Below are positions 1 through 41,003 of a stretch of DNA of 41,003 nt, piece after piece (within the stretch, counting starts at the first letter, position 1; each line of letters starts with the position of its first letter). Below the pieces are notes generated by a model. That model was not told where the DNA came from. It searched no databases and saw only the letters and a program-made list of their open reading frames with translations. The position numbers and the translations under genes are program-made. The DNA comes from a virus. The stretch lies in UHGV virus genome UHGV-0224761; one strand, 5' to 3'.

Positions 1-555
1 GCCGCCCTGTGTCAGCAGGGTAATTGCGTCATCCACCGGATGCATCAGGTACCAGGTTTTATTGCTCTGCTTGGTGATCTTAAATACACCCTCTGACAAC
101 TGAATTCCGCCATTCTTAATGCTCCAGCCCTGCGCAGCAGCGTCTCCGGCTGTCGGCAACAGGGAGATTGTGCGTACGGATGCATCTTCAGACGGCCCCG
201 ATGGCGTGTCGCCACCGGGCGAGGGTTTGATTTCCGGTGCCTTACCACTGATGAAGGCTGAGGTGCGCCCGGCTGCGTTCAGAATAGCGGTTGCCATACG
301 ATCCGGAATAATGCTCCTGCGCGCCCATGAACTGAAATGTGTCGGGCGGTTTGATGATACCTGGTTTCCATTCGTTCTCGATGCCGCACCGTAATATCCT
401 GATGCCGGAATATCCGGATCTTCTGCCGGTGCGTTAGTGGCGGTATTGACGCCGTTACCGTCTGTCATGAAGGGCACAAAATAAACGCCCTCACTCTCCC
501 TGTTTTTATACCCGCCGTACACGGTGTCGTACTGGGTAGCGTATGTATTTTTCCA
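1..555 (-). pseudogene. 3' fragment of a host SGNH/sialate-O-acetylesterase-like gene cut by the prophage; continues past the left edge of the window
   Basis: Minus-strand frame with no start codon reads ...WKNTYATQYDTVYGGYK...FVPFMTDGNG...HFSSWARR..., collinear with the C-terminal half of the 684-aa paralogue at 35366..37420. It joins in frame with the 5' fragment at 39779..40631 once the prophage is removed. Confidence 0.7.
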
Positions 556-560
556 GTAAT
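556..560. repeat. Left copy of a putative 5-bp target-site duplication (GTAAT)
   Basis: Lies immediately outside the TG-initiated prophage end; matches ATAAT at 39774..39778 in 4 of 5 positions, and either copy restores the codons TAT-TAC/TAT-TGG of the interrupted gene. Confidence 0.55.
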
Positions 561-740
561 TGTAACCAGGTGAATCATTTGATACCGACAAGGGTTTTAG
601 TGAAAGGAGGTGAAATCACCTGTAAGATGCTGAAATAAAACAGGTGATGTATACTTCGGACGGAAAACTCTTTTTGATACCGACTGCTCAACAAATAGTC
701 AAAAGATCAAAAAACGGCGACACATTTGATACTGCTAATT
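561..740 (+). repeat. Left end (attL) with three putative transposase-binding repeats
   Basis: Direct copies of TTTGATACCGA at 578..588 and 673..683 and a degenerate TTTGATACTGC at 726..736; the same motif occurs inverted at the right end. Confidence 0.6.
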
Positions 741-916
741 TACCCTTAAAATCTTCTTCAAAACATCTTCAAACTGCCAAAATGCTCACATAATCGATCT
801 AACTATAATCAGTATGATAATCATCATGAATTACTATTCAATAGCGTGATTATCTTGGGATGAGTCATATGATCTCTATATGTATTTACAGCACCACCTC
901 ATGATAGCGATGGCGC

Positions 917-1528
917 TTAACCAACAACATTTTTCTTTACTGTCACTGCCCCTGATTCCTGGGTGGCGTTATTGCTCGAGTTGTACTTCTCAATAACGCG
1001 CAAAATCTCTTTGTCTGTTTCTTCACTTCCCGCCATTCCTATCTTTATTGCATTTTTTAGTACGGGACGTAATGGCAAGGCATCAATGATGCTTTCTACC
1101 GCATCCTGGCTGATTGTAGATGTATTCATTGCTGCCAGCCTGACAAGGTTGTTAGTACCTTCTCGCCTGATGAATGTAAGGATTAATTGCTTCTCTTGGG
1201 GGCTTAGAGAGCTAAGCGCCTGATCAATACCCGAACCTGAATCGCAATTTTTTCCGATTTTTCCGCATTCATCTTCGTTCTTGCCTGTGGCCAACCAGTC
1301 GAGTGAACAATTACAGGCTTTAGCTATTAAGGCCAGTTTATCCAAAGGAGGGAAGTTTTTCCCCTTCCTGTAATTTCTTACTGTGGCTTCAGATAGTCCA
1401 CAAAGGGTCGCCAGTTCGACGTTTGTCATGTTTCCCATAGCCATAGCTAAGCGTTCTGAAAATCGGTTTATTCCTTCCATATCAATAAACCGTTCCGCAC
1501 TGGATACGGTTTTTTCTGCCTTATCCAT
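917..1528 (-). CDS. c: Mu-type repressor (c-like), helix-turn-helix
   Basis: 203-aa ORF divergent from ner at the left end, as in Mu; HTH-like segment ...NVELATLCGLSEATVRNYRKG.... Confidence 0.6.
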   Translation of the reverse strand: MDKAEKTVSSAERFIDMEGINRFSERLAMAMGNMTNVELATLCGLSEATVRNYRKGKNFPPLDKLALIAKACNCSLDWLATGKNEDECGKIGKNCDSGSGIDQALSSLSPQEKQLILTFIRREGTNNLVRLAAMNTSTISQDAVESIIDALPLRPVLKNAIKIGMAGSEETDKEILRVIEKYNSSNNATQESGAVTVKKNVVG

Positions 1529-1684
1529 ATAACCCCCTATAAAACAAAGAAATTATCGACATCGCATTTAATTTCGATATGCTCGCAAAAAACCGTTGAT
1601 ATCGAATTATTTTGCGATTATGATTTACCTAAATCGATAACCGGTTTTGATTATCGGTTCAGGTAAACATGAGAGGATCACACA
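1529..1684. promoter_or_regulatory. Divergent c/ner operator-promoter region with repeated TCGATA/TATCGA motifs
   Basis: 156-bp AT-rich intergenic region between divergent c and ner, with at least five copies of ATCGA(T/A)A-like half-sites (ttatcgacatcg, ttcgatatg, gatatcgaa, aatcgataac, gattatcgg). Confidence 0.5.
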
Positions 1685-1951
1685 ATGAGGGTATCCAGAC
1701 AAGCATCGAATAATTTGTTTGTTCGAGAGGGGTGTGACTGGTCTGCTAAAGCGGTATATGCAGCCCTTGAAAACAAAGGCACAGACCTCCCTGAACTGGA
1801 AAGGGAGTTAGGATTAAAAAGCGGATCAATGCGCAATGTGTTTTACCGCCAGTGCCGTAAATACGAAGCCGCCATCGCCGAAAAAATAGGGGTTGAACCT
1901 GCTGTAATCTGGCCCAGCAGATACCAGGTGGACGCCAGAGAAGTGGCTTGA
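1685..1951 (+). CDS. ner: Ner-like DNA-binding regulator
   Basis: C-terminal ...PAVIWPSRYQ... matches the conserved Ner/Nlp signature; sits between the repressor and the transposase; RBS agagga upstream. Confidence 0.85.
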   Translation: MRVSRQASNNLFVREGCDWSAKAVYAALENKGTDLPELERELGLKSGSMRNVFYRQCRKYEAAIAEKIGVEPAVIWPSRYQVDAREVA

Positions 1952-15696: not shown

Positions 15697-17285
15697 TGGG
15701 ACGCATCATTGATACTGACGGAAAACCTTTCTCCTTTGACCCGGAGATGCAGAGTGCCGCGCTGGATATTCCGCAGATTGCCAGCCGTTATATTGAACAT
15801 CCGGCTTCGGGTATCACCCCGAACCGGGCGGCGCAGTGCCTTCGCGGGGCTGAACGTGGCGATCTGATTGCCCAGTCCGATCTGGCCGCTGATATTGAAG
15901 AAAAGGACACCCACCTTTTTGCGGAGCTGGGCAAGCGACGTCTTGCCATTCAGGGGGTGCCATGGAGTATTGAGCCGCCACCGAACGCCAGCGCGAATGA
16001 GAAAAAGGACGCGGAAATGCTCGACGAATATCTGCATTCCGCAGACTGGTTTGATGCCATGCTGTTTGACGCCACGGATGCCATCCTGAAGGGCTATTCC
16101 TGCATGGAAATTGAGCACGGGATGCTCGGTAAAATGCACATCATCCGCGCCATCCGCTGGCGTGACAGCGGGCATTTCTGCCTTAACCCGGATGATTTGA
16201 GCGAACTGCGGCTGCGTGACGGCAGCCATGCCGGGGTGGCGTTTCAGCCTTTTGGCTGGATAGTGCATCAGTCACGTTCACGGACCGGTTACGGTGGCGC
16301 AACGGGGCTTGTCAGGACGCTTGTCTGGCCGTTCATTTTCAAAAACTATTCCGTGCGCGATCTGGCCGAATTTCTGGAGGTGTACGGACTGCCGATGAAG
16401 GTCGGGAAATACCCGTCCGGGGCAACACCGGAGCAGAAAAGCGCCCTGATGCGGGCGGTGATGGATATCGGGCGACGTACAGGCGGGATCATCCCGGCCG
16501 GGATGTCGCTGGAATTTCAGGCGGCAGCAAACGGTCAGGCCGATCCATTTGAAACCATGATTTCGTGGGGGGAGCGTTCCATCTCCAAAGCAATACTCGG
16601 CGGCACGCTGACCACGGAAGCCGGAGACAAAGGCGCGCGCTCGCTGGGTGAGGTGCATAACGAGGTGCGCCGGGAAATCAGGGATTCTGATTTACGGCAG
16701 CTGGCTGCAACCCTGAACCGCGATCTGGTGTATCCGCTGTACGCCCTGAACACCACGCACACTATTGATATCCGCCGTCTGCCACGTATCTGCTTCCAGA
16801 CCAAAGAACCAGGTGATATCACCAAAATCACCAGTGCGGTGATGCAGCTCAGTACGGGGATGGATATTTCTGATCCCTGGATACGGGAGCAGACCGGTAT
16901 TCCGCAGCCCACGCCCGGTGAAGCCATATTCCGTGTCCGTCAGAGTGGCAATGAACCGGCTCAGACCGACAGGGAAACACCACCGGAAAAACAGGAAAAA
17001 ACAGAGCAGACGGCGCTGTCAGCCAGACTGCCGGAAGCGAAAAGCACGCCGCGTGATGAACTGGATGATATGGGGGACGCGGTGCCTGCCCGCCGCTTAC
17101 AGGAGGCCATCGACCCGGTACTGGAGCCGGTCATTGATGCCATCAGAACGCGGGGGCTGGCGGATGCGCTGGCAGACCTGCCTGCCCTTTATCGTGAAAT
17201 GGATGATTCCCGCCTGATGACGCTGCTCAGTGATGCCATGTTTGCTGCGGAAATGAAGGGGATGCTGGATGACACAGGGGATTGA
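15696..17285 (+). CDS. H: Portal protein (Mu gp29/H-like)
   Basis: 529 aa; position between terminase and the F-like protein. Confidence 0.7.
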   Translation: MGRIIDTDGKPFSFDPEMQSAALDIPQIASRYIEHPASGITPNRAAQCLRGAERGDLIAQSDLAADIEEKDTHLFAELGKRRLAIQGVPWSIEPPPNASANEKKDAEMLDEYLHSADWFDAMLFDATDAILKGYSCMEIEHGMLGKMHIIRAIRWRDSGHFCLNPDDLSELRLRDGSHAGVAFQPFGWIVHQSRSRTGYGGATGLVRTLVWPFIFKNYSVRDLAEFLEVYGLPMKVGKYPSGATPEQKSALMRAVMDIGRRTGGIIPAGMSLEFQAAANGQADPFETMISWGERSISKAILGGTLTTEAGDKGARSLGEVHNEVRREIRDSDLRQLAATLNRDLVYPLYALNTTHTIDIRRLPRICFQTKEPGDITKITSAVMQLSTGMDISDPWIREQTGIPQPTPGEAIFRVRQSGNEPAQTDRETPPEKQEKTEQTALSARLPEAKSTPRDELDDMGDAVPARRLQEAIDPVLEPVIDAIRTRGLADALADLPALYREMDDSRLMTLLSDAMFAAEMKGMLDDTGD

Positions 17286-18600
17286 TTTAGGTTATGCCGC
17301 CACGCTTCCCTCAAAAGAGGCGGTAGCATACTTCCGTGTCAAAGGGGCGCATATCAGCTGGAACTGGTTCGAAACAGCCGCGGATGTTCATGCCCGCTCA
17401 TTCACGGCAGCAAAAGCGGCACGCCTGGATGTGGTGACCACGTTACAGGCCGAAGTGCAGCGGGCCATTGATGAGGGAATTTCACAGAAAGCATTTATCC
17501 GCACGCTGACGCCACGCCTGCAAAAGCTGGGATGGTGGGGAAAGCAGATTGTGGTGGACAGCGACGGTAACGCGGAAGAAGTGCAACTGGGCAGTCCCCG
17601 TCGTCTGGCGCTGATTTACAACGTGAACACCCGTGTGGCTTACAATGCCGGGCGTTACACGCAGATGATGAACAACACGGACACGCATCCGTTCTGGCAG
17701 TATGTGGCGGTCATGGACAGCCGTACCCGCCCGTCGCATTCCGCCCTTAACGGTCTGGTATTCCGCTATGACGATCCGTTCTGGAAAACACACTACCCAC
17801 CTAATGGCTGGAACTGCCGCTGCCGTGTGCGGCCATTGTCTCAGGCTCGTCTGGATGCAATGGGGTTATCCGTTTCATCCGGTGAGGATCATCTCTCCAC
17901 CCGCAATGTTGAGGCTGGCGTGGATAAACAGACCGGAGAAGTCAGAGAAATGCCGGTGACCACATATTCAGATGGCACCAGAACCATGACACCGGATGTG
18001 GGCTGGTCATATAACCCCGGCTCGGCAGCGTTCGGCACAGACCAGGCGCTGATCCGCAAACTGATCGAGGTGAAAAGCCCGGCGTTACGGGAAATGGTGG
18101 TTCAGGAGATGAACAACAGCCCGGAGCGGCAGCTGGCGTTCCGCATCTGGGCAAAAAACATCATGCAGACCCGGCGAGGTGGTAACGATATCCGCACGCT
18201 GGGCTTTATGACTGAAAGCATTGCGCAGGCAGTGGAAAGCCGGACGGGAACGCCACCGGCCCGCCTGCTGGCGATGAGCGGTAAAAATGTGCTCCATGCA
18301 GACAGTGTGAAACATCAGAATGACGGCATCGCCCTGATGCCAGAGGACTTCGGGCGCTTACCGGCAATGCTGGCAAAGCCAAAAGCGGTGCTGTGGGACA
18401 AACGGCACAAAAATCTGATGTATATCGTGGAAAATAAGGATGGCAGTGTGCAGATTGCCGTTAATGCACCGTACAGTCTGAAACGTCAGCCCGACAAACT
18501 GGATGTGATTGTGAATGCTTACCGGGTTATCAATATGGATAAGCTGAAATCGGATATCCGGGGCGGAATGCTTGAGGTGCTGGAAGGACAAATTGATTAA
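17269..18600 (+). CDS. F: Mu F-like head morphogenesis protein
   Basis: Conserved ...YPPNGWNCRCRVRP... motif typical of the Phage_Mu_F family. Confidence 0.8.
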   Translation: MTQGIDLGYAATLPSKEAVAYFRVKGAHISWNWFETAADVHARSFTAAKAARLDVVTTLQAEVQRAIDEGISQKAFIRTLTPRLQKLGWWGKQIVVDSDGNAEEVQLGSPRRLALIYNVNTRVAYNAGRYTQMMNNTDTHPFWQYVAVMDSRTRPSHSALNGLVFRYDDPFWKTHYPPNGWNCRCRVRPLSQARLDAMGLSVSSGEDHLSTRNVEAGVDKQTGEVREMPVTTYSDGTRTMTPDVGWSYNPGSAAFGTDQALIRKLIEVKSPALREMVVQEMNNSPERQLAFRIWAKNIMQTRRGGNDIRTLGFMTESIAQAVESRTGTPPARLLAMSGKNVLHADSVKHQNDGIALMPEDFGRLPAMLAKPKAVLWDKRHKNLMYIVENKDGSVQIAVNAPYSLKRQPDKLDVIVNAYRVINMDKLKSDIRGGMLEVLEGQID

Positions 18601-18683
18601 CGGTCAGTGGCGGGGGTCGAACCCGCATACATGATCCACCCGGAGGCAGGCACCGACTTTACCAGTTAAGCGTACACTGACCG
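18601..18683 (-). other. tRNA-like hairpin element (not a canonical tRNA)
   Basis: Perfect 9-bp terminal inverted repeat (CGGTCAGTG/CACTGACCG) enclosing a T-arm-like GCGGG-TTCGACC-CCCGC when read on the minus strand; no convincing anticodon arm and no CCA. Confidence 0.3.
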
Positions 18684-18721
18684 CCTGTTTATTTTATATT
18701 CATCCTTTATGCGGAGGCAAT

Positions 18722-19195
18722 ATGTCATCCATTGATGCCGCTGTCGTTGTTGACGTTACGCGTCTCCAGCGGGTGTTTGCCCGGCTTCAGTTTGTGGGCG
18801 GCGGAAAAGACCTGGCCCGCAGTGTGGCGGAGAGTCTTCTGTCATCGTCAGAAATGGCGTTTGAACAGGAAAAAGAGCCGGACGGCGAACGCTGGCATGA
18901 CTGGTCAGATCCTTACCGCAAGTGGCGTACCCGTAAGGGATACACGCCCGGCAAAATCCTGACACTGAACGGCGATCTGGCCCGCCGCCTGACCACGGAT
19001 TATGGCGATACCTGGGCGCTGATTGGATCAAATGAACCTTATGCGGCCATTCATCAGTGGGGTGGCCTGCCTGGTATGCCACCGGGACCGGCGGCCATTG
19101 GCGCACGTCCGTATATGGGCTTTGATCAGGTGGCAGAACAGGAGATCATGGACGAAATCAGAAAACGCTTTAAAAAGGCCACAGAAACGCCGTAA
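18722..19195 (+). CDS. G: Mu G-like virion morphogenesis protein
   Basis: 157-aa ORF at the Mu G position between F and I. Confidence 0.5.
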   Translation: MSSIDAAVVVDVTRLQRVFARLQFVGGGKDLARSVAESLLSSSEMAFEQEKEPDGERWHDWSDPYRKWRTRKGYTPGKILTLNGDLARRLTTDYGDTWALIGSNEPYAAIHQWGGLPGMPPGPAAIGARPYMGFDQVAEQEIMDEIRKRFKKATETP

Positions 19196-33673: not shown

Positions 33674-33724
33674 ATAGTCAGTAAATAATATATTTTAAAA
33701 CAGATTTATTTCCAGGAGGATTTT

Positions 33725-34246
33725 ATGGAACTAAAAAATATAACCCGTTATTATCCTGAAAATATGCCATATGGTAATAATGTTCAGTATTTCCAGAGTG
33801 AAGATGGTAAGGATTTCTACGAATCCCTGCCATTATTCACCAAAAAATATAAACTTTGCATAACACCTGACAGCGGCGTTATCTGCTCAATATCACAGGA
33901 CGCCTCGGCGCTGTATCCTGCGGGGTTTTCTGTGGTTGAGGTCGATGAACTCCCTGAAGGCACGGATATTTCAGGAAACTGGAAGTTTGATAATGGCATA
34001 ATCTCCCGTATTCCGGTTAACTACGCAAGAAAACTGGAAGCAATGCGCCAGTCATATCTTAATCAGGCATATGAAAAAATTAATGACTGGAGAACGGAGC
34101 TACAACTGGGCACCATCAGCGATGAAGACAGAGCAGCACTTACCCAATGGATGGCATACATCAGTCAGGTGAAGAAAATGGAACTACCCGCCATTAAAAC
34201 AGAAGCTGAATTTAACGCCATTAAATGGCCTGAGCAGCCACAGTAA
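33725..34246 (+). CDS. U: Tail fibre assembly protein (U-like)
   Basis: 173-aa ORF immediately after S with RBS aggagg. Confidence 0.6.
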   Translation: MELKNITRYYPENMPYGNNVQYFQSEDGKDFYESLPLFTKKYKLCITPDSGVICSISQDASALYPAGFSVVEVDELPEGTDISGNWKFDNGIISRIPVNYARKLEAMRQSYLNQAYEKINDWRTELQLGTISDEDRAALTQWMAYISQVKKMELPAIKTEAEFNAIKWPEQPQ

Positions 34247-34250
34247 TAAA

Positions 34251-34268
34251 GAAGGCCGGAAGGCCTTC
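34251..34268. terminator. Hairpin between convergent U and Sv'
   Basis: gaaggcc-ggaa-ggccttc, a 7-bp perfect stem, flanked by A/T-rich sequence. Confidence 0.5.
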
Positions 34269-34277
34269 TGAATATCA

Positions 34278-34628
34278 TTATATACTTGCAGCCGTCACCC
34301 ATGCTCCATTTAACAGATACTGCAACGGCCGGTAATACACGCCGCCGACGTTATCTGCCGTATTCTTACCGACATCCTGTACTTTAATTCCGGTAAGAAC
34401 ATTGCCGCCCCCCAGATTCAGATCCCAGCTTTCCCATGTTCCGGGCATATGTGCGGTCACCGACCCCAGTCTTATGGCGGTTACTGTTCCTGATGAGATA
34501 GTGATATCCTGCGTCCCGTCAAAGGGAACACCATTAATTGTGTGGGCATTTGCCAGCCTGTTCGCGGCAACGGCGGTGCCGTCCGATGGCAGGGCATTCG
34601 CCGCCCTGTTTACCGTTTCCCGTAAACC
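34278..34628 (-). CDS. Alternative tail fibre variable part Sv' (no own start; expressed after inversion as an Sc-Sv' fusion)
   Basis: Minus-strand frame open from the gix site to the stop at 34278, reading ...[41 protein letters not shown]...YYRPLQYLLNGAWVTAASI, collinear with Sv. Confidence 0.6.
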   Translation of the reverse strand, partial: GLRETVNRAANALPSDGTAVAANRLANAHTINGVPFDGTQDITISSGTVTAIRLGSVTAHMPGTWESWDLNLGGGNVLTGIKVQDVGKNTADNVGGVYYRPLQYLLNGAWVTAASI

Positions 34629-34642
34629 GAGGTTTTCAGGAA
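34617..34642. promoter_or_regulatory. gix-like recombination site, right (TTCCCGTAAACC-GA-GGTTTTCAGGAA)
   Basis: Close match to the Gin crossover-site pattern; inverted relative to 33300..33325. Confidence 0.7.
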
Positions 34643-34707
34643 AGCCAGGATTAACTCTGTTTTATTCCTCATGCGACAATTCCGGCTTTTTATAATAAGG
34701 AAATCGT

Positions 34708-35280
34708 ATGCTGATTGGGTATATCAGGGTGTCAACAAATGACCAGAATACGGCGCTACAAAGAAATGCGCTGGAATGTGCAGGATGTGAGCTGTTTTTC
34801 GAAGACAGAATAAGCGGTAAGACAAGGGAGCGTCCCGGACTTAAACGCGCATTAAAGCGACTCCGGCCAGGGGATACCCTGCTGGTCTGGAAACTGGATC
34901 GCCTTGGACGCAGTATGCAGCACCTTGTCCTTTTAACAGAAGAACTCCGGCAACGCGGCGTTAACTTCCGCAGCATTACGGACAATATTGATACATCCAC
35001 TCCCATGGGACGTTTCTTTTTCCATATAATGGGCGCGCTGGCGGAAATGGAGCGGGAACTCATTATTGAACGTACACGCGCGGGTCTTGCTGCTGCCCGT
35101 GCTCAGGGGCGTCATGGCGGCAGACCTCAGAAACTGACAGAGAAAGAGCGGGAGCAAATCGCCCGTTTGCTGGCTAATGGCGAGTCCCGTAAACAAATCG
35201 CACTGATATTTGATATTGGCCTTTCCACCCTTTATCGTTATTTTCCTGCCTCACCAGCTCCGTCACCAAAAGTACCGTGA
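34708..35280 (+). CDS. gin: Gin/Hin-family serine DNA invertase
   Basis: 190 aa; MLIGYIRVSTNDQ... with the catalytic serine in the RVST motif and a C-terminal HTH (...GESRKQIALIFDIGLSTLYRY...). Confidence 0.95.
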   Translation: MLIGYIRVSTNDQNTALQRNALECAGCELFFEDRISGKTRERPGLKRALKRLRPGDTLLVWKLDRLGRSMQHLVLLTEELRQRGVNFRSITDNIDTSTPMGRFFFHIMGALAEMERELIIERTRAGLAAARAQGRHGGRPQKLTEKEREQIARLLANGESRKQIALIFDIGLSTLYRYFPASPAPSPKVP

Positions 35281-38754: not shown

Positions 38755-38955
38755 ATGTATCGAAACATACGGTGCCGACATTGTAACAAGCTACTGGCAC
38801 GAGCCAGCTTCAGTTATCTGGAAGTTAAATGTCCGCGCTGTAAAACCCTCAATCAAATCACATCTCAGAGCGCCACAGAGCACCCCACATACACAAGGAA
38901 ATCCTGTCGTGGGGAACAGAAAGCAAGTTACATCCCGTATCATCAGCACGCCTGA
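38755..38955 (+). CDS. com: Com zinc-finger translational activator of mom
   Basis: ...[30 protein letters not shown]...EHPT parallels the Mu Com Cys4 zinc finger; the track ORF begins upstream at 38710 with a non-ATG start. Confidence 0.8.
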
Positions 38956-39646
38956 ACTTATTCACTATAACGACAATATCGTCGGTTATGGCTCCCGTGA
39001 GTTACGGGTTGAGACAATAAGTTGCTGGCTGGCCCGGCTGGTCGTCGTCAATAAACATTACAGCCATCGTTTCGTAAATAATTCCTACCTTCATCTGGGC
39101 ATATTTTCAGAACGGGAGCTGGTTGGCGTAATGCAATGGGGTTATGCCCTTAATCCAAACAATGGTGCACGCGTCGTAACTGGCACGCAGAACCGCGAAT
39201 ATATGGAGCTTAACCGGTTATGGCTGCATGACTGTATGCCGAGAAACTCCGAATCAAGGGCAATCAGTTACGCGCTCAAACTAATCAGACAACTTTATCC
39301 GCAGGTGCAGTGGGTTCAGTCGTTTGCAGATGAGCGTTGTGGCTGTCTTGGTGTCGTGTACCAGGCAAGCAATTTTGATTATGTAGGCAGTCATGAAACA
39401 ACATTCTATGAACTTGATGGCGAGTGGTATCACGAGATTTGCAAGAATGCAATCAAACGAGGAGGACAGCGAGGTGAACATCTGCGGGCTAATATCGACA
39501 GAGCCAGTGTTCATAAATTCCGTCAGTTTCGTTACATCCGGTTTCTGGACAAGAGAGCCAGAAAACGCCTTAACACAAAGCTATTCAAAGTCCAGCCTTA
39601 CCCAAAACCACAAACAGTTAAAACTGGTTTGAAAGAGAGTGAATGA
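38909..39646 (+). CDS. mom: Mom-like DNA modification protein
   Basis: Start overlaps the 3' end of com and it is the last gene before the right end, as in Mu; GTG start after RBS aagga lying inside a palindrome aggaaatcct. Start is approximate (the track ORF extends upstream to 38714). Confidence 0.55.
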
Positions 39647-39689
39647 ACGCTTAAAAACTCATTCTAAAACTCAAAAGAAAAGCGCCGAT

Positions 39690-39773
39690 TTAGTATCAAA
39701 TAAGTTGCGTATCGGCGTTTTTCAGCGGTATCAAATGAAATGCAAATCGGTATCAAAAAAATCGCCGCGCTAT
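39690..39773 (+). repeat. Right end (attR) with three inverted transposase-binding repeats
   Basis: Reverse complements of TTTGATACCGA at 39748..39758, TTTGATACCGC at 39725..39735 and TTTGATACT at 39692..39700; the terminus ...CGCCGCGCTAT resembles the Mu right end. Confidence 0.6.
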
Positions 39774-39778
39774 ATAAT
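39774..39778. repeat. Right copy of the putative 5-bp target-site duplication (ATAAT)
   Basis: Pairs with GTAAT at 556..560. Confidence 0.55.
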
Positions 39779-40631
39779 ACGTCGTGTCACCACAAATCCA
39801 CGGCACATTTACAGCACTGCCACCATGACACTGCGCGTTAAACACAGTGAGGTCAGCACGAAACTGCTTCAGCATGGCTGTAAACAGCGCAGGTTGCTGT
39901 GCGTAGGTGGCGGCGCTCATGTCAAACTCTCCCTGCATCCAGCACACCGCCAGCAACACATTTTTCGGGTTCTTCTGTAATGCAGCTTTAGTGCGCGCAA
40001 TCAGGTCCTGATATAACGGTTTACCCACCCCCCAGCGCGCCGAATCCTGGCTGGCCCCCGCGTCCGCACTGAATGTCCCCTCCGCGCCCCGGGTGAATGC
40101 CGAACCACCACGACAGCATGGTACCAGCAGGATCCCCGCGTTATTCGGGATATACGGGAGCAGTTTTTTGGCAATATGTAAGCCCTGGCCGACACAGCCG
40201 TACTGCCCTTTGCTCAGGTCTGCCTTCGGATGATTCAGCGTACTCATATCCTGCACATCATGCAGACAGTGGTCAGCCGGGATGATGTCGTTATACGTAC
40301 AACTCTCTCCACCCGGAGTTACCGTGCTGCGGCGCGCCAGCTGTTTAATGCGCGGATCCGGAGCATCGTAAGAATCCGGTAACGGAAGCCCTTCACCGTA
40401 GGCCATGCCGTTGGACTGTCCGGCAAGCACAACCACGTAGAACCAGTCCGGCTCAGATGAAGGGCCGACCTGTGGATCTCCTTCAATAGCCACCGCCTGC
40501 ATCAGTGTGTACGGCGTAATGGCAACCGGTCCGCCATATGGCTGCCAGCCCTCTTTCAGTTTGTGTGTCAGCTTTTCCGCAAGGTCTGACGGCGACGCCG
40601 CCCTGACAACATCATAGTGTTTAAATGCCAT
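39779..40631 (-). pseudogene. 5' fragment of the host SGNH/sialate-O-acetylesterase-like gene cut by the prophage
   Basis: N-terminal about 285 aa ending ...VNVPWICGDTTYY; in the track ORF (39753..40631) the last six codons (IARRFF-stop) are read from prophage-end sequence; SGNH motif VVVLAGQSNGMAYGEG. Confidence 0.7.
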
Positions 40632-40825
40632 GAATCCTCCCGGCCGGGATAATATTGTGAGTAAAATGAGGAGCGGGCTGAAGTCCGGAAGTTACAGGAC
40701 AATGGCAGAAGAGAGACAATAGCCCGCAATACGAAAAAGGCCGCGCTATTGCGCAGAGTGATTACTGTCGGATATTATTCGCCAGCTGAAATATTACTTC
40801 ACGTTTTGTTGTTTATTCCTTGCCG

Positions 40826-40857
40826 CCCGCGTCTCCCTGCGCGGGATTTTTTTGTCC
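40826..40857 (+). terminator. Rho-independent terminator-like hairpin on the plus strand
   Basis: cccgcg-tctccctg-cgcggg followed by attttttt; no convincing plus-strand CDS upstream within the window. Confidence 0.45.
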
Positions 40858-41003
40858 ATAAGAAAGCCCCTCCGGAGAGGGGCTGGAGAGTGGCGCTATG
40901 TGCCATTGCATGGTGCCGGGTGCCTCCCGGTGAATTCAGTACCAGCACCTGAATCCGCGATTATCCCATATACCTACTCGCTGATTGCCCCTCCGCACAG
41001 GGG

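Follow-up and report, generated by a model that had tools for sequence, protein, structure and literature searches.

Between the late genes F and G of the Mu-like prophage UHGV-0224761 (a UHGV virus genome; the 41,003-nucleotide stretch analysed here is called the window), the minus strand carries a gene for a small tRNA-like RNA. Comparison with homologous loci confirms that this element is a conserved, structured, minus-strand RNA gene, which keeps the body and the elbow of a tRNA but lacks both the decoding end and a free acceptor end. The RNA accompanies every F protein in which the motif of the C-terminal MuF-C domain, a predicted RNase, is intact or largely so, and it is gone where that motif has been lost. 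We consider it likely that the RNA is a functional partner of MuF-C and put forward, more tentatively and from sequence comparison, that it may be a non-cleavable tRNA mimic that neutralises the domain, in the manner of an RNA antitoxin or immunity factor. The main clue to its function is this link to the C-terminal domain of F, of which the earlier note that had drawn attention to this DNA made no mention.

A tRNA-like RNA gene in the F-G gap

The F-G gap is 121 nt long and without a plausible open reading frame (ORF); inside it lies instead the RNA gene, the sole minus-strand gene of the late region, convergent on the late operon. By model R1, the window holds one copy only. Read on the minus strand (Table 1), the sequence opens with one strand of a perfect 9-bp terminal helix, continues with U-A-C at 18674-18672, of which U-A (18674-18673) resemble residues U8 and A9 of a tRNA, and then forms a D arm, a hairpin, a short variable loop and a textbook T arm before the second helix strand closes the molecule. 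The earlier note had described just such a tRNA-like element in the gap, with the terminal helix, the U8-A9-like residues, a D-loop-like stretch and the T arm, and with no convincing anticodon stem and no encoded CCA, and every one of the features that it listed is in place. At 18655-18632 the 7-nt anticodon loop is absent and a UCCG-capped hairpin is found instead. Across the family, the hairpin that stands in for the anticodon arm differs between members in both length and sequence; it is usually predicted to be capped by a loop of four bases, often of the UNCG or GNRA type. ARAGORN reports no tRNA and no tmRNA in the window and no tRNA in loci L001-L004; on 60 further loci it returns nothing in 57 and, in the other three, 'tRNA-???' calls with 2- or 4-base anticodons, so that a normal anticodon is found in none.

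In a covariance search of the locus, the Rfam tRNA model matches the window RNA with 31.0 bits, above its gathering score of 29 (E 8e-5 in a 301-nt search), and it scores other members of the family at 35-46.8 bits. The match to 18602-18681 disappears when the whole window is run at the gathering threshold, probably because of a filter, an example of how routine scans miss such elements.

The reality of the RNA is settled by the comparative data and not by the fold of a single sequence, which is only modestly beyond chance (energy z = -1.76, with 13 of 200 shuffles folding equally well) and leaves thermodynamics alone unconvincing. Two collections were compared: alignment A1, with 38 distinct relatives from DNA-pattern scans of viral and metagenome contigs and from E. 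coli genome matches, and a second set of 35 distinct sequences found solely via the neighbouring protein. Over these comparisons, slid controls paired in 37-59% of cells. The acceptor, D and T helices of A1 are paired in 92.6% of cells, as against 40-59% with the partners slid, and double-sided changes occur at 10 of 16 pairs, a number that none of 500 shuffles attains. The second set is paired in 96.9% of cells, and 13 of its 16 pairs covary. Six of the seven acceptor pairs covary, as do the two outer pairs of the terminal helix: of the 38 sequences, 33 have -1:73 paired and 29 have -2:74 paired, and none of 2000 shuffles attains either value. The -1:73 pair is G:C in 18 sequences, U:A in 7, A:U in 5, G.U in 2 and U.G in 1. 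The terminal helix spans 9-15 bp in the family, some members being longer by 5-8 pairs. Compared across relatives, the F-G gap has kept its paired positions through compensatory changes. The G.U pairs speak for the minus strand, with 32 in the minus-strand reading and 4 in the plus-strand reading.

About 100 homologous loci share the position and the orientation of the RNA. In phages, it always lies directly downstream of the F stop codon, antisense, and before G, even where F and G are only 29-50% identical to those of the window. The window sequence occurs in 229 of 5426 complete E. coli genomes (~4%), many of its copies being labelled 'tRNA-OTHER' by the NCBI pipeline, and O157 copies with one mismatch lose this PGAP label. 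The family is also present in Salmonella, Edwardsiella, Pasteurellaceae and environmental phages; a genome contig scan anchored on protein G yielded 2 loci only. The metagenomic contigs L079 (1980-2053, minus strand) and L085 carry a canonical-looking tRNA with the anticodon loop CUUUAAA and the anticodon UUA, which would read the stop codon UAA, and this tRNA shares the family's unusual extra C between A9 and the D stem.

The RNA gene has a predicted sigma-70-type promoter of its own. Its predicted transcription start lies 2-3 nt ahead of the helix, and its -35 box overlaps the reverse complement of the G ribosome-binding site. Of 32 distinct upstream regions, 23 contain a -10 box that matches in at least 5 of 6 positions, where 4.5 would be expected; TAAAAT, TATACT and TATAAT are the hexamers of the family. 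The predicted start remains at the base of the helix even in members whose helix is 7-8 bp longer, and the internal copies of the tandem arrays described below have no -10 box.

Association of the RNA with the MuF-C domain

The F protein matches two Pfam families, PF04233 (Phage_Mu_F) in its N-terminal part and PF18819 (MuF_C) in its C-terminal part. MuF-C has been assigned to the PBECR predicted RNases by Iyer et al. (PMC5512222), according to whom Mu's own MuF-C looks catalytically dead and its orthologues look active. The same authors suggested an RNA-binding role even for the inactive Mu domain, and F belongs to the virion proteins believed to leave the head together with the DNA (PMC5512222). 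In all 14 aligned RNA-bearing phages, the domain contains both K-x-L-x-H-A-(D/N)-S-x-(K/R)-H and D-x-x-x-N-x-Y-(R/K). In the F protein of Mu, a 7-residue deletion takes out the His-Ser-His stretch, and the N and Y of the second motif are lost as well. As the earlier note said, Mu itself has no tRNA here: its F and G overlap, with nothing between them.

Co-occurrence was followed in two locus sets, one of 58 loci and one of 28 new loci, both from protein-anchored scans with MuF-C alignments. The RNA lies just downstream of the F stop codon in 39 of the first 58. The 19 loci without it are 17 members of the motif-less Mu clade, L187, in which the motif has been lost, and L133, in which F is disrupted. 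The domains of L187 and L159 are ~83% identical; the former reads MDASSPTSL and is followed by no RNA, whereas the latter reads MHADSQKHQ and has kept its RNA. At L133 (1501-1962), F is identical to that of the window up to ...DVIVNAY and then runs into unrelated sequence with no RNA downstream; an insertion or a rearrangement seems to have broken up this cassette. Motif and RNA occur together at every one of the 28 loci of the second set, three of which have Asn in place of the Ser. Of the isolated phages, Pmp9 of Pasteurella carries motif and RNA, AFS-2018a, likewise a Pasteurella phage, retains the first His and the Ser together with a diverged tRNA-like sequence that was recognised by eye only, and Shewanella phage MuM16-1 has lost the motif, with an F-G gap of 9 nt and no RNA. 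Three independent lineages (Mu, L187 and MuM16-1) therefore have neither motif nor RNA. No discordant case was seen, the close window-type loci having not all been checked one by one.

The F C-terminus and the RNA are also swapped jointly as a cassette. Over the stretch that begins with the portal gene and ends with the protease gene, the window and the phage locus L018 share ~96% identity, except in one block, which comprises the final ~90 codons of F together with the RNA gene and the promoter of that gene (Table 1). The same divergent block, running from inside MuF-C through the RNA to the start of G, is seen in four further phage pairs, which gives five pairs in total that are otherwise ~96% identical. 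Wherever the pair table has flanks of at least 93% identity and an F C-terminus below 80%, the RNA is always below 82% identical.

The pair persists outside intact phages. A decayed Mergibacter prophage retains a solo 149-aa MuF-C gene followed by the RNA, and a 200-aa fragment of F stranded among host genes likewise has the RNA after it. Locus L093 carries two different tRNA-like alleles, at 1205-1278 and about 1540-1620 (both on the minus strand), ~350 nt apart and flanking a short F 3'-end fragment, an arrangement that suggests local duplication of the cassette.

Members of the family are found as well in two kinds of small mobile element. The first is an integrative island of ~8 kb at the tRNA-Ile gene next to mug (L112, NZ_AP045176.1 744506-752667; also L097, L100, L104 and L106), which encodes an integrase, a helix-turn-helix regulator, Ash, two Icd-like proteins, DUF4222, a RepA helicase, SSB, PerC and a Mor-family activator, and which looks like a satellite of Mu-like phages. 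At its far end lies an array of 2-3 tRNA-like genes with one promoter for all. The copies in the array resemble different phage alleles: in the variable arm, one is 90% identical to the L003/L061 type, another 81% to the window type and another ~70% to the L004/L032 type. One island copy is called 'tRNA-Tyr' by PGAP. The second is a small Mu-derived transposable element with a tRNA-like gene (L067 1-14830, in the 19-kb IMGVR_UViG_2919497567_000002; relatives L074, L076 and L110). It also encodes a CI-type repressor, an rve-family transposase, an AAA_22 ATPase, Mor, the gpT major head protein and DUF2199, together with two candidate defence genes, one for a 786-aa PDC-S06 ATPase (600 bits) and one for DUF2971/PDC-S31. 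This element may be a capsid-encoding transposable satellite with a defence hotspot.

The coordinates of the locus are collected in Table 1. The prophage of the window is complete and is inserted in a fimbrial usher gene, whose halves flank it at window 1-1900 and 39900-41003 (1-1575 and 40821-41375 in L113) and are annotated by PGAP as partial pseudogenes; such an interruption is as expected of random Mu-type transposition. An invertible tail-fibre segment with its recombinase lies at about 33700-35280. The prophage's right end has, at the place taken by com-mom in Mu, a gene for a Com-family regulator and after it an ORF of 245 aa (38890-39782; L113 39802-40693). Beyond that end, in the fimbrial region, Rfam matches the small RNA STnc100 at 40854-41003 on the minus strand (97.5 bits), the match being cut by the end of the window.

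Table 1 Features of the F-G locus in the window (coordinates in nucleotides of the 41,003-nt stretch)
Feature	Position	Strand	Remarks
Gene F (443 aa)	17269..18600	+	Phage_Mu_F aa 58-187; MuF_C aa 347-429 (nt 18307-18555)
HADSVKH, F residues 343-349	18295..18315	+	Conserved His/Ser/His motif of MuF-C: H343, S346, H349
NAYR	18514-18525	+	Second conserved motif of MuF-C
Exchangeable cassette (last ~90 codons of F, RNA gene, promoter)	18327..18739	.	57-82% identical to L018
tRNA-like RNA gene, including the 9-bp terminal helix	18601..18683	-	Model R1, 88.3 bits
Core of the RNA gene	18602-18681	-	As delimited by Rfam, model R1 and PGAP ('tRNA-OTHER')
Terminal (acceptor-like) helix, 5' strand CGGTCAGTG	18675..18683	-	Pairs with CACTGACCG
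D arm GCTT-AACTGGTA-AAGT	18656..18671	-	Conserved GG in D loop
Variable hairpin replacing the anticodon arm	18632..18655 (24 nt)	-	CUGCC-UCCG-GGUGG on a GUG/CAU base
Variable loop TGTAT	18631-18627	-	
T arm GCGGG-TTCGACC-CCCGC	18610..18626	-	
Terminal helix, 3' strand CACTGACCG	18601..18609	-	Starts at the base adjoining the F stop codon (18598-18600)
Predicted sigma-70-type promoter of the RNA	18691..18720	-	-35 TTGCCT (18720-18715); -10 TAAAAT (18696-18691)
Gene G (virion morphogenesis / neck protein)	18722..19195	+	Neighbour only; its start is the right-hand boundary of the cassette

How the RNA might act on MuF-C

We propose, as a plausible but tentative mechanism, that the RNA acts on MuF-C as a non-cleavable tRNA mimic. 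MuF-C would have the activity predicted for it, that of a BECR-fold RNase of the colicin D/E5 kind, which are usually tRNA cutters. The tRNA-shaped RNA of ~83 nt, transcribed independently and opposite to the late operon, would bind the domain as an uncuttable substrate mimic and would keep it inactive both in the lysogen and in the virion-producing cell. F would be packaged in the head and ejected with the DNA, and its domain would then act in the next host. Lacking an anticodon loop and with its 3' end enclosed in a long helix, the RNA could not be cut and would therefore bind and silence the domain. Such a mechanism could explain the co-losses in either order, since an inactivated domain would make the RNA dispensable, or the reverse. 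The joint swapping of the F C-terminus and the RNA would resemble that of the toxin-immunity cassettes of polymorphic toxins, and the allele arrays of the satellite-like islands would be akin to orphan immunity genes. The likeness to a toxin-immunity module is drawn because cassette exchange, persistence of the pair and allele arrays are all habits of such modules.

A wider reading, which we regard as possible but more doubtful, is that these loci represent a genuinely new class of RNA immunity, in which a virion-delivered RNase domain is countered by a tRNA-mimic RNA and not by a protein, and in which the allelic cassettes circulate among transposable phages. As part of that same doubtful reading, satellites would hoard arrays of 'orphan immunity RNA' to blunt incoming or helper phages.

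Several points weigh against the mimic mechanism. MuF-C type and RNA class are not linked by a simple code, as is seen in L134 and the window, which share 97% identity in the RNA and 76% in the MuF-C domain. RNA identity correlates about equally with the identities of the F C-terminal part, the F N-terminal part and G (Spearman 0.69, 0.66 and 0.63), and linkage alone is expected to co-transfer adjacent DNA to some degree. Because the tip of the hairpin is not conserved, an active-site block, if there is one, would probably be made via the core or the acceptor end. The sampling is biased to Gammaproteobacteria. Lastly, the same data fit the RNA as a substrate, a cofactor or virion cargo.

This last possibility is the strongest of the alternatives, although we think it unlikely. 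The RNA would be a partner of MuF-C without inhibiting it, either as its substrate or cofactor or as a cargo that is bound, maybe trimmed, carried in the capsid and delivered with the DNA. The coupling between motif and RNA applies equally to such a partner, and the ejection of F with the DNA and the RNA-binding role suggested for the Mu domain (PMC5512222) would both suit it. However, Mu retains the domain and has no RNA, the domain-RNA pair survives in remnants that are unable to build virions, and the multi-allele arrays of the satellites fit protection better than cargo.

Less probable again is a 'moron', an accessory gene that stands on its own and has nothing to do with F; the RNA could then be, for instance, a decoy against tRNA-targeting nucleases of the host or of rivals, or a tRNA-like histidine acceptor derived from tRNA-His. 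Such a gene could well have its own promoter and stand as the sole minus-strand gene of the late region, and family members do occur in islands and in the defence-gene hotspot without F. In pattern searches, moreover, the nearest real tRNAs by D and T arm are phage tRNA-His, and the extra pair is most often G-1:C73 (18 of 38), the hallmark of tRNA-His. This reading leaves unexplained why the RNA and the MuF-C motif are missing together in three independent lineages and why the gene is so strictly adjacent to F. The -1:73 pair is also A:U, U:A or G.U, and so offers no fixed identity element, and a histidine acceptor would sit badly with a CCA that is not encoded and a 3' end that is base-paired.

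A regulatory function in antisense is very unlikely. Here, minus-strand transcription into the 3' end of F would tune F and G or block leaky late transcription, the fold serving only to stabilise the 5' end of the transcript. The gene does converge on the late operon, and no minus-strand terminator was found just downstream of it. Yet the satellite copies have no F opposite them, and the conserved tertiary motifs of the T and D loops, with the elbow, would be superfluous for a stabilising hairpin. Elsewhere in the 41-kb window, complementarity to the RNA is no more than expected by chance (the longest stretch is 11 nt, twice).

The functions that the earlier note had offered for its element, a degenerate tRNA, an RNA-processing or stability element and a large structured terminator, are not supported. 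A tRNA pseudogene, or a real decoding tRNA, is largely refuted and highly improbable. The Rfam scores exceed the gathering score, and PGAP assigns 'tRNA-OTHER' and, in one satellite copy, 'tRNA-Tyr'; but a 3-base anticodon in a loop of 7 nt is absent from every member, the length of the arm varies widely, the helix has at least 9 bp, the discriminator is paired and CCA is not encoded. The deep conservation of structure, promoter and position, in phages with F proteins of no more than 33-50% identity, excludes neutral decay. Nothing points to a punctuation role in RNA processing. A terminator, stability element or processing signal in the plus-strand late mRNA is likewise largely refuted and the least probable of all: a fold is predicted for the reverse complement too (-28.8 kcal/mol), with a T-rich stretch after it, but the G.U bias and the conserved -10 box both point to the minus strand, the T-rich stretch is the complement of that box and is not U-rich in members with TATACT or TATAAT, and no plus-strand terminator was called at the locus. 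Other identities were considered and dropped for want of support, namely a pac site, a gyrase site, an integrase attachment site, a Mom modification donor and a link to tmRNA-dependent Mu induction; two candidate published matches, the Pas sRNAs (small RNAs) and HnrS/prophage Sp18, proved unrelated to the tRNA-like RNA.

Relation to known systems and significance

The RNA is most like the immunity gene of a polymorphic toxin or a type III antitoxin, yet it falls short of the defining features of both, because it is an RNA and not a protein, and a single convergent gene and not an upstream array of repeats. With the polymorphic toxins (the MuF-domain phage toxins and colicins D and E5) the locus shares a head-targeting MuF domain joined to a variable C-terminal predicted BECR RNase, a partner gene directly downstream, cassette exchange and orphan-like partner arrays in other mobile elements. 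It differs in the nature of the partner, which is here an opposite-strand RNA gene with its own promoter instead of a small co-oriented protein gene. The immunity proteins of colicins D and E5 have been described as tRNA mimics. The type III toxin-antitoxin systems (ToxIN, CptIN and TenpIN) resemble the proposed pair, in which an endoribonuclease would be neutralised by a structured non-coding RNA from an adjacent gene, and are likewise phage-associated. Their antitoxin, however, consists of short tandem repeats that lie upstream, are co-transcribed and are processed by a toxin of the ToxN/AbiQ family, whereas the RNA described here is single, tRNA-shaped, downstream and convergent, with its own promoter, and the protein is a virion-protein domain of another fold family.

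Among RNAs, the canonical tRNA (RF00005) provides the cloverleaf core, the T loop TTCGA, the GG of the D loop and U8, which is reflected in the scores of 31-47 bits, and the extra G-1:C73 pair, as the commonest state of -1:73, recalls tRNA-His. In contrast to a tRNA, the family RNA has no anticodon loop and no encoded CCA, its helix has at least 9 bp with a paired discriminator, and an extra base stands between A9 and the D stem. The tRNA-like domain of tmRNA and the bacterial Y RNA YrlA are comparable in being non-decoding RNAs that keep the acceptor, T arm and elbow to engage tRNA-binding proteins. The family RNA differs in lacking an mRNA-like part and in having neither SmpB nor Ro in its context, and YrlA has its termini at the opposite end of the fold. 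It is worth noting that the T arm and the 3' strand of the acceptor in the family resemble those of the tmRNA tRNA-like domain, and that the 3' half of a GC-rich member (L159 1884-1933, minus strand) matches the Rfam tmRNA model ends with 24.9 bits (gathering score 47). The RNase P-processed immunity RNAs C4 of P1/P7 and CI of P4 are also small stable RNAs of phages or satellites, made in lysogens with tRNA-like processing. They differ by acting through base-pairing to phage transcripts; the family RNA has no complementary target in the window, and Rfam gives no C4 match at the locus. The family has no Rfam entry of its own, the tRNA model being the sole family matched above threshold, and a literature search returned no description of the RNA, of a link between MuF and a tRNA-like RNA, or of an immunity factor for MuF-C.

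Even if the proposed mechanism is wrong, a widespread, covarying RNA family without an Rfam entry stands, and it offers a concrete, testable handle on the role of the C-terminal predicted RNase of Mu-type F proteins. If the mechanism is right, phages would use a bespoke tRNA mimic as immunity, and RNA antitoxins would exist beyond the three known type III families. The 'tRNA-OTHER' calls in prophages may then mark functional non-coding genes and not junk. It would also be explained why such phages and satellite-like islands carry and exchange these RNAs, and an RNA layer would be added to the conflict between phages and between phages and their satellites.
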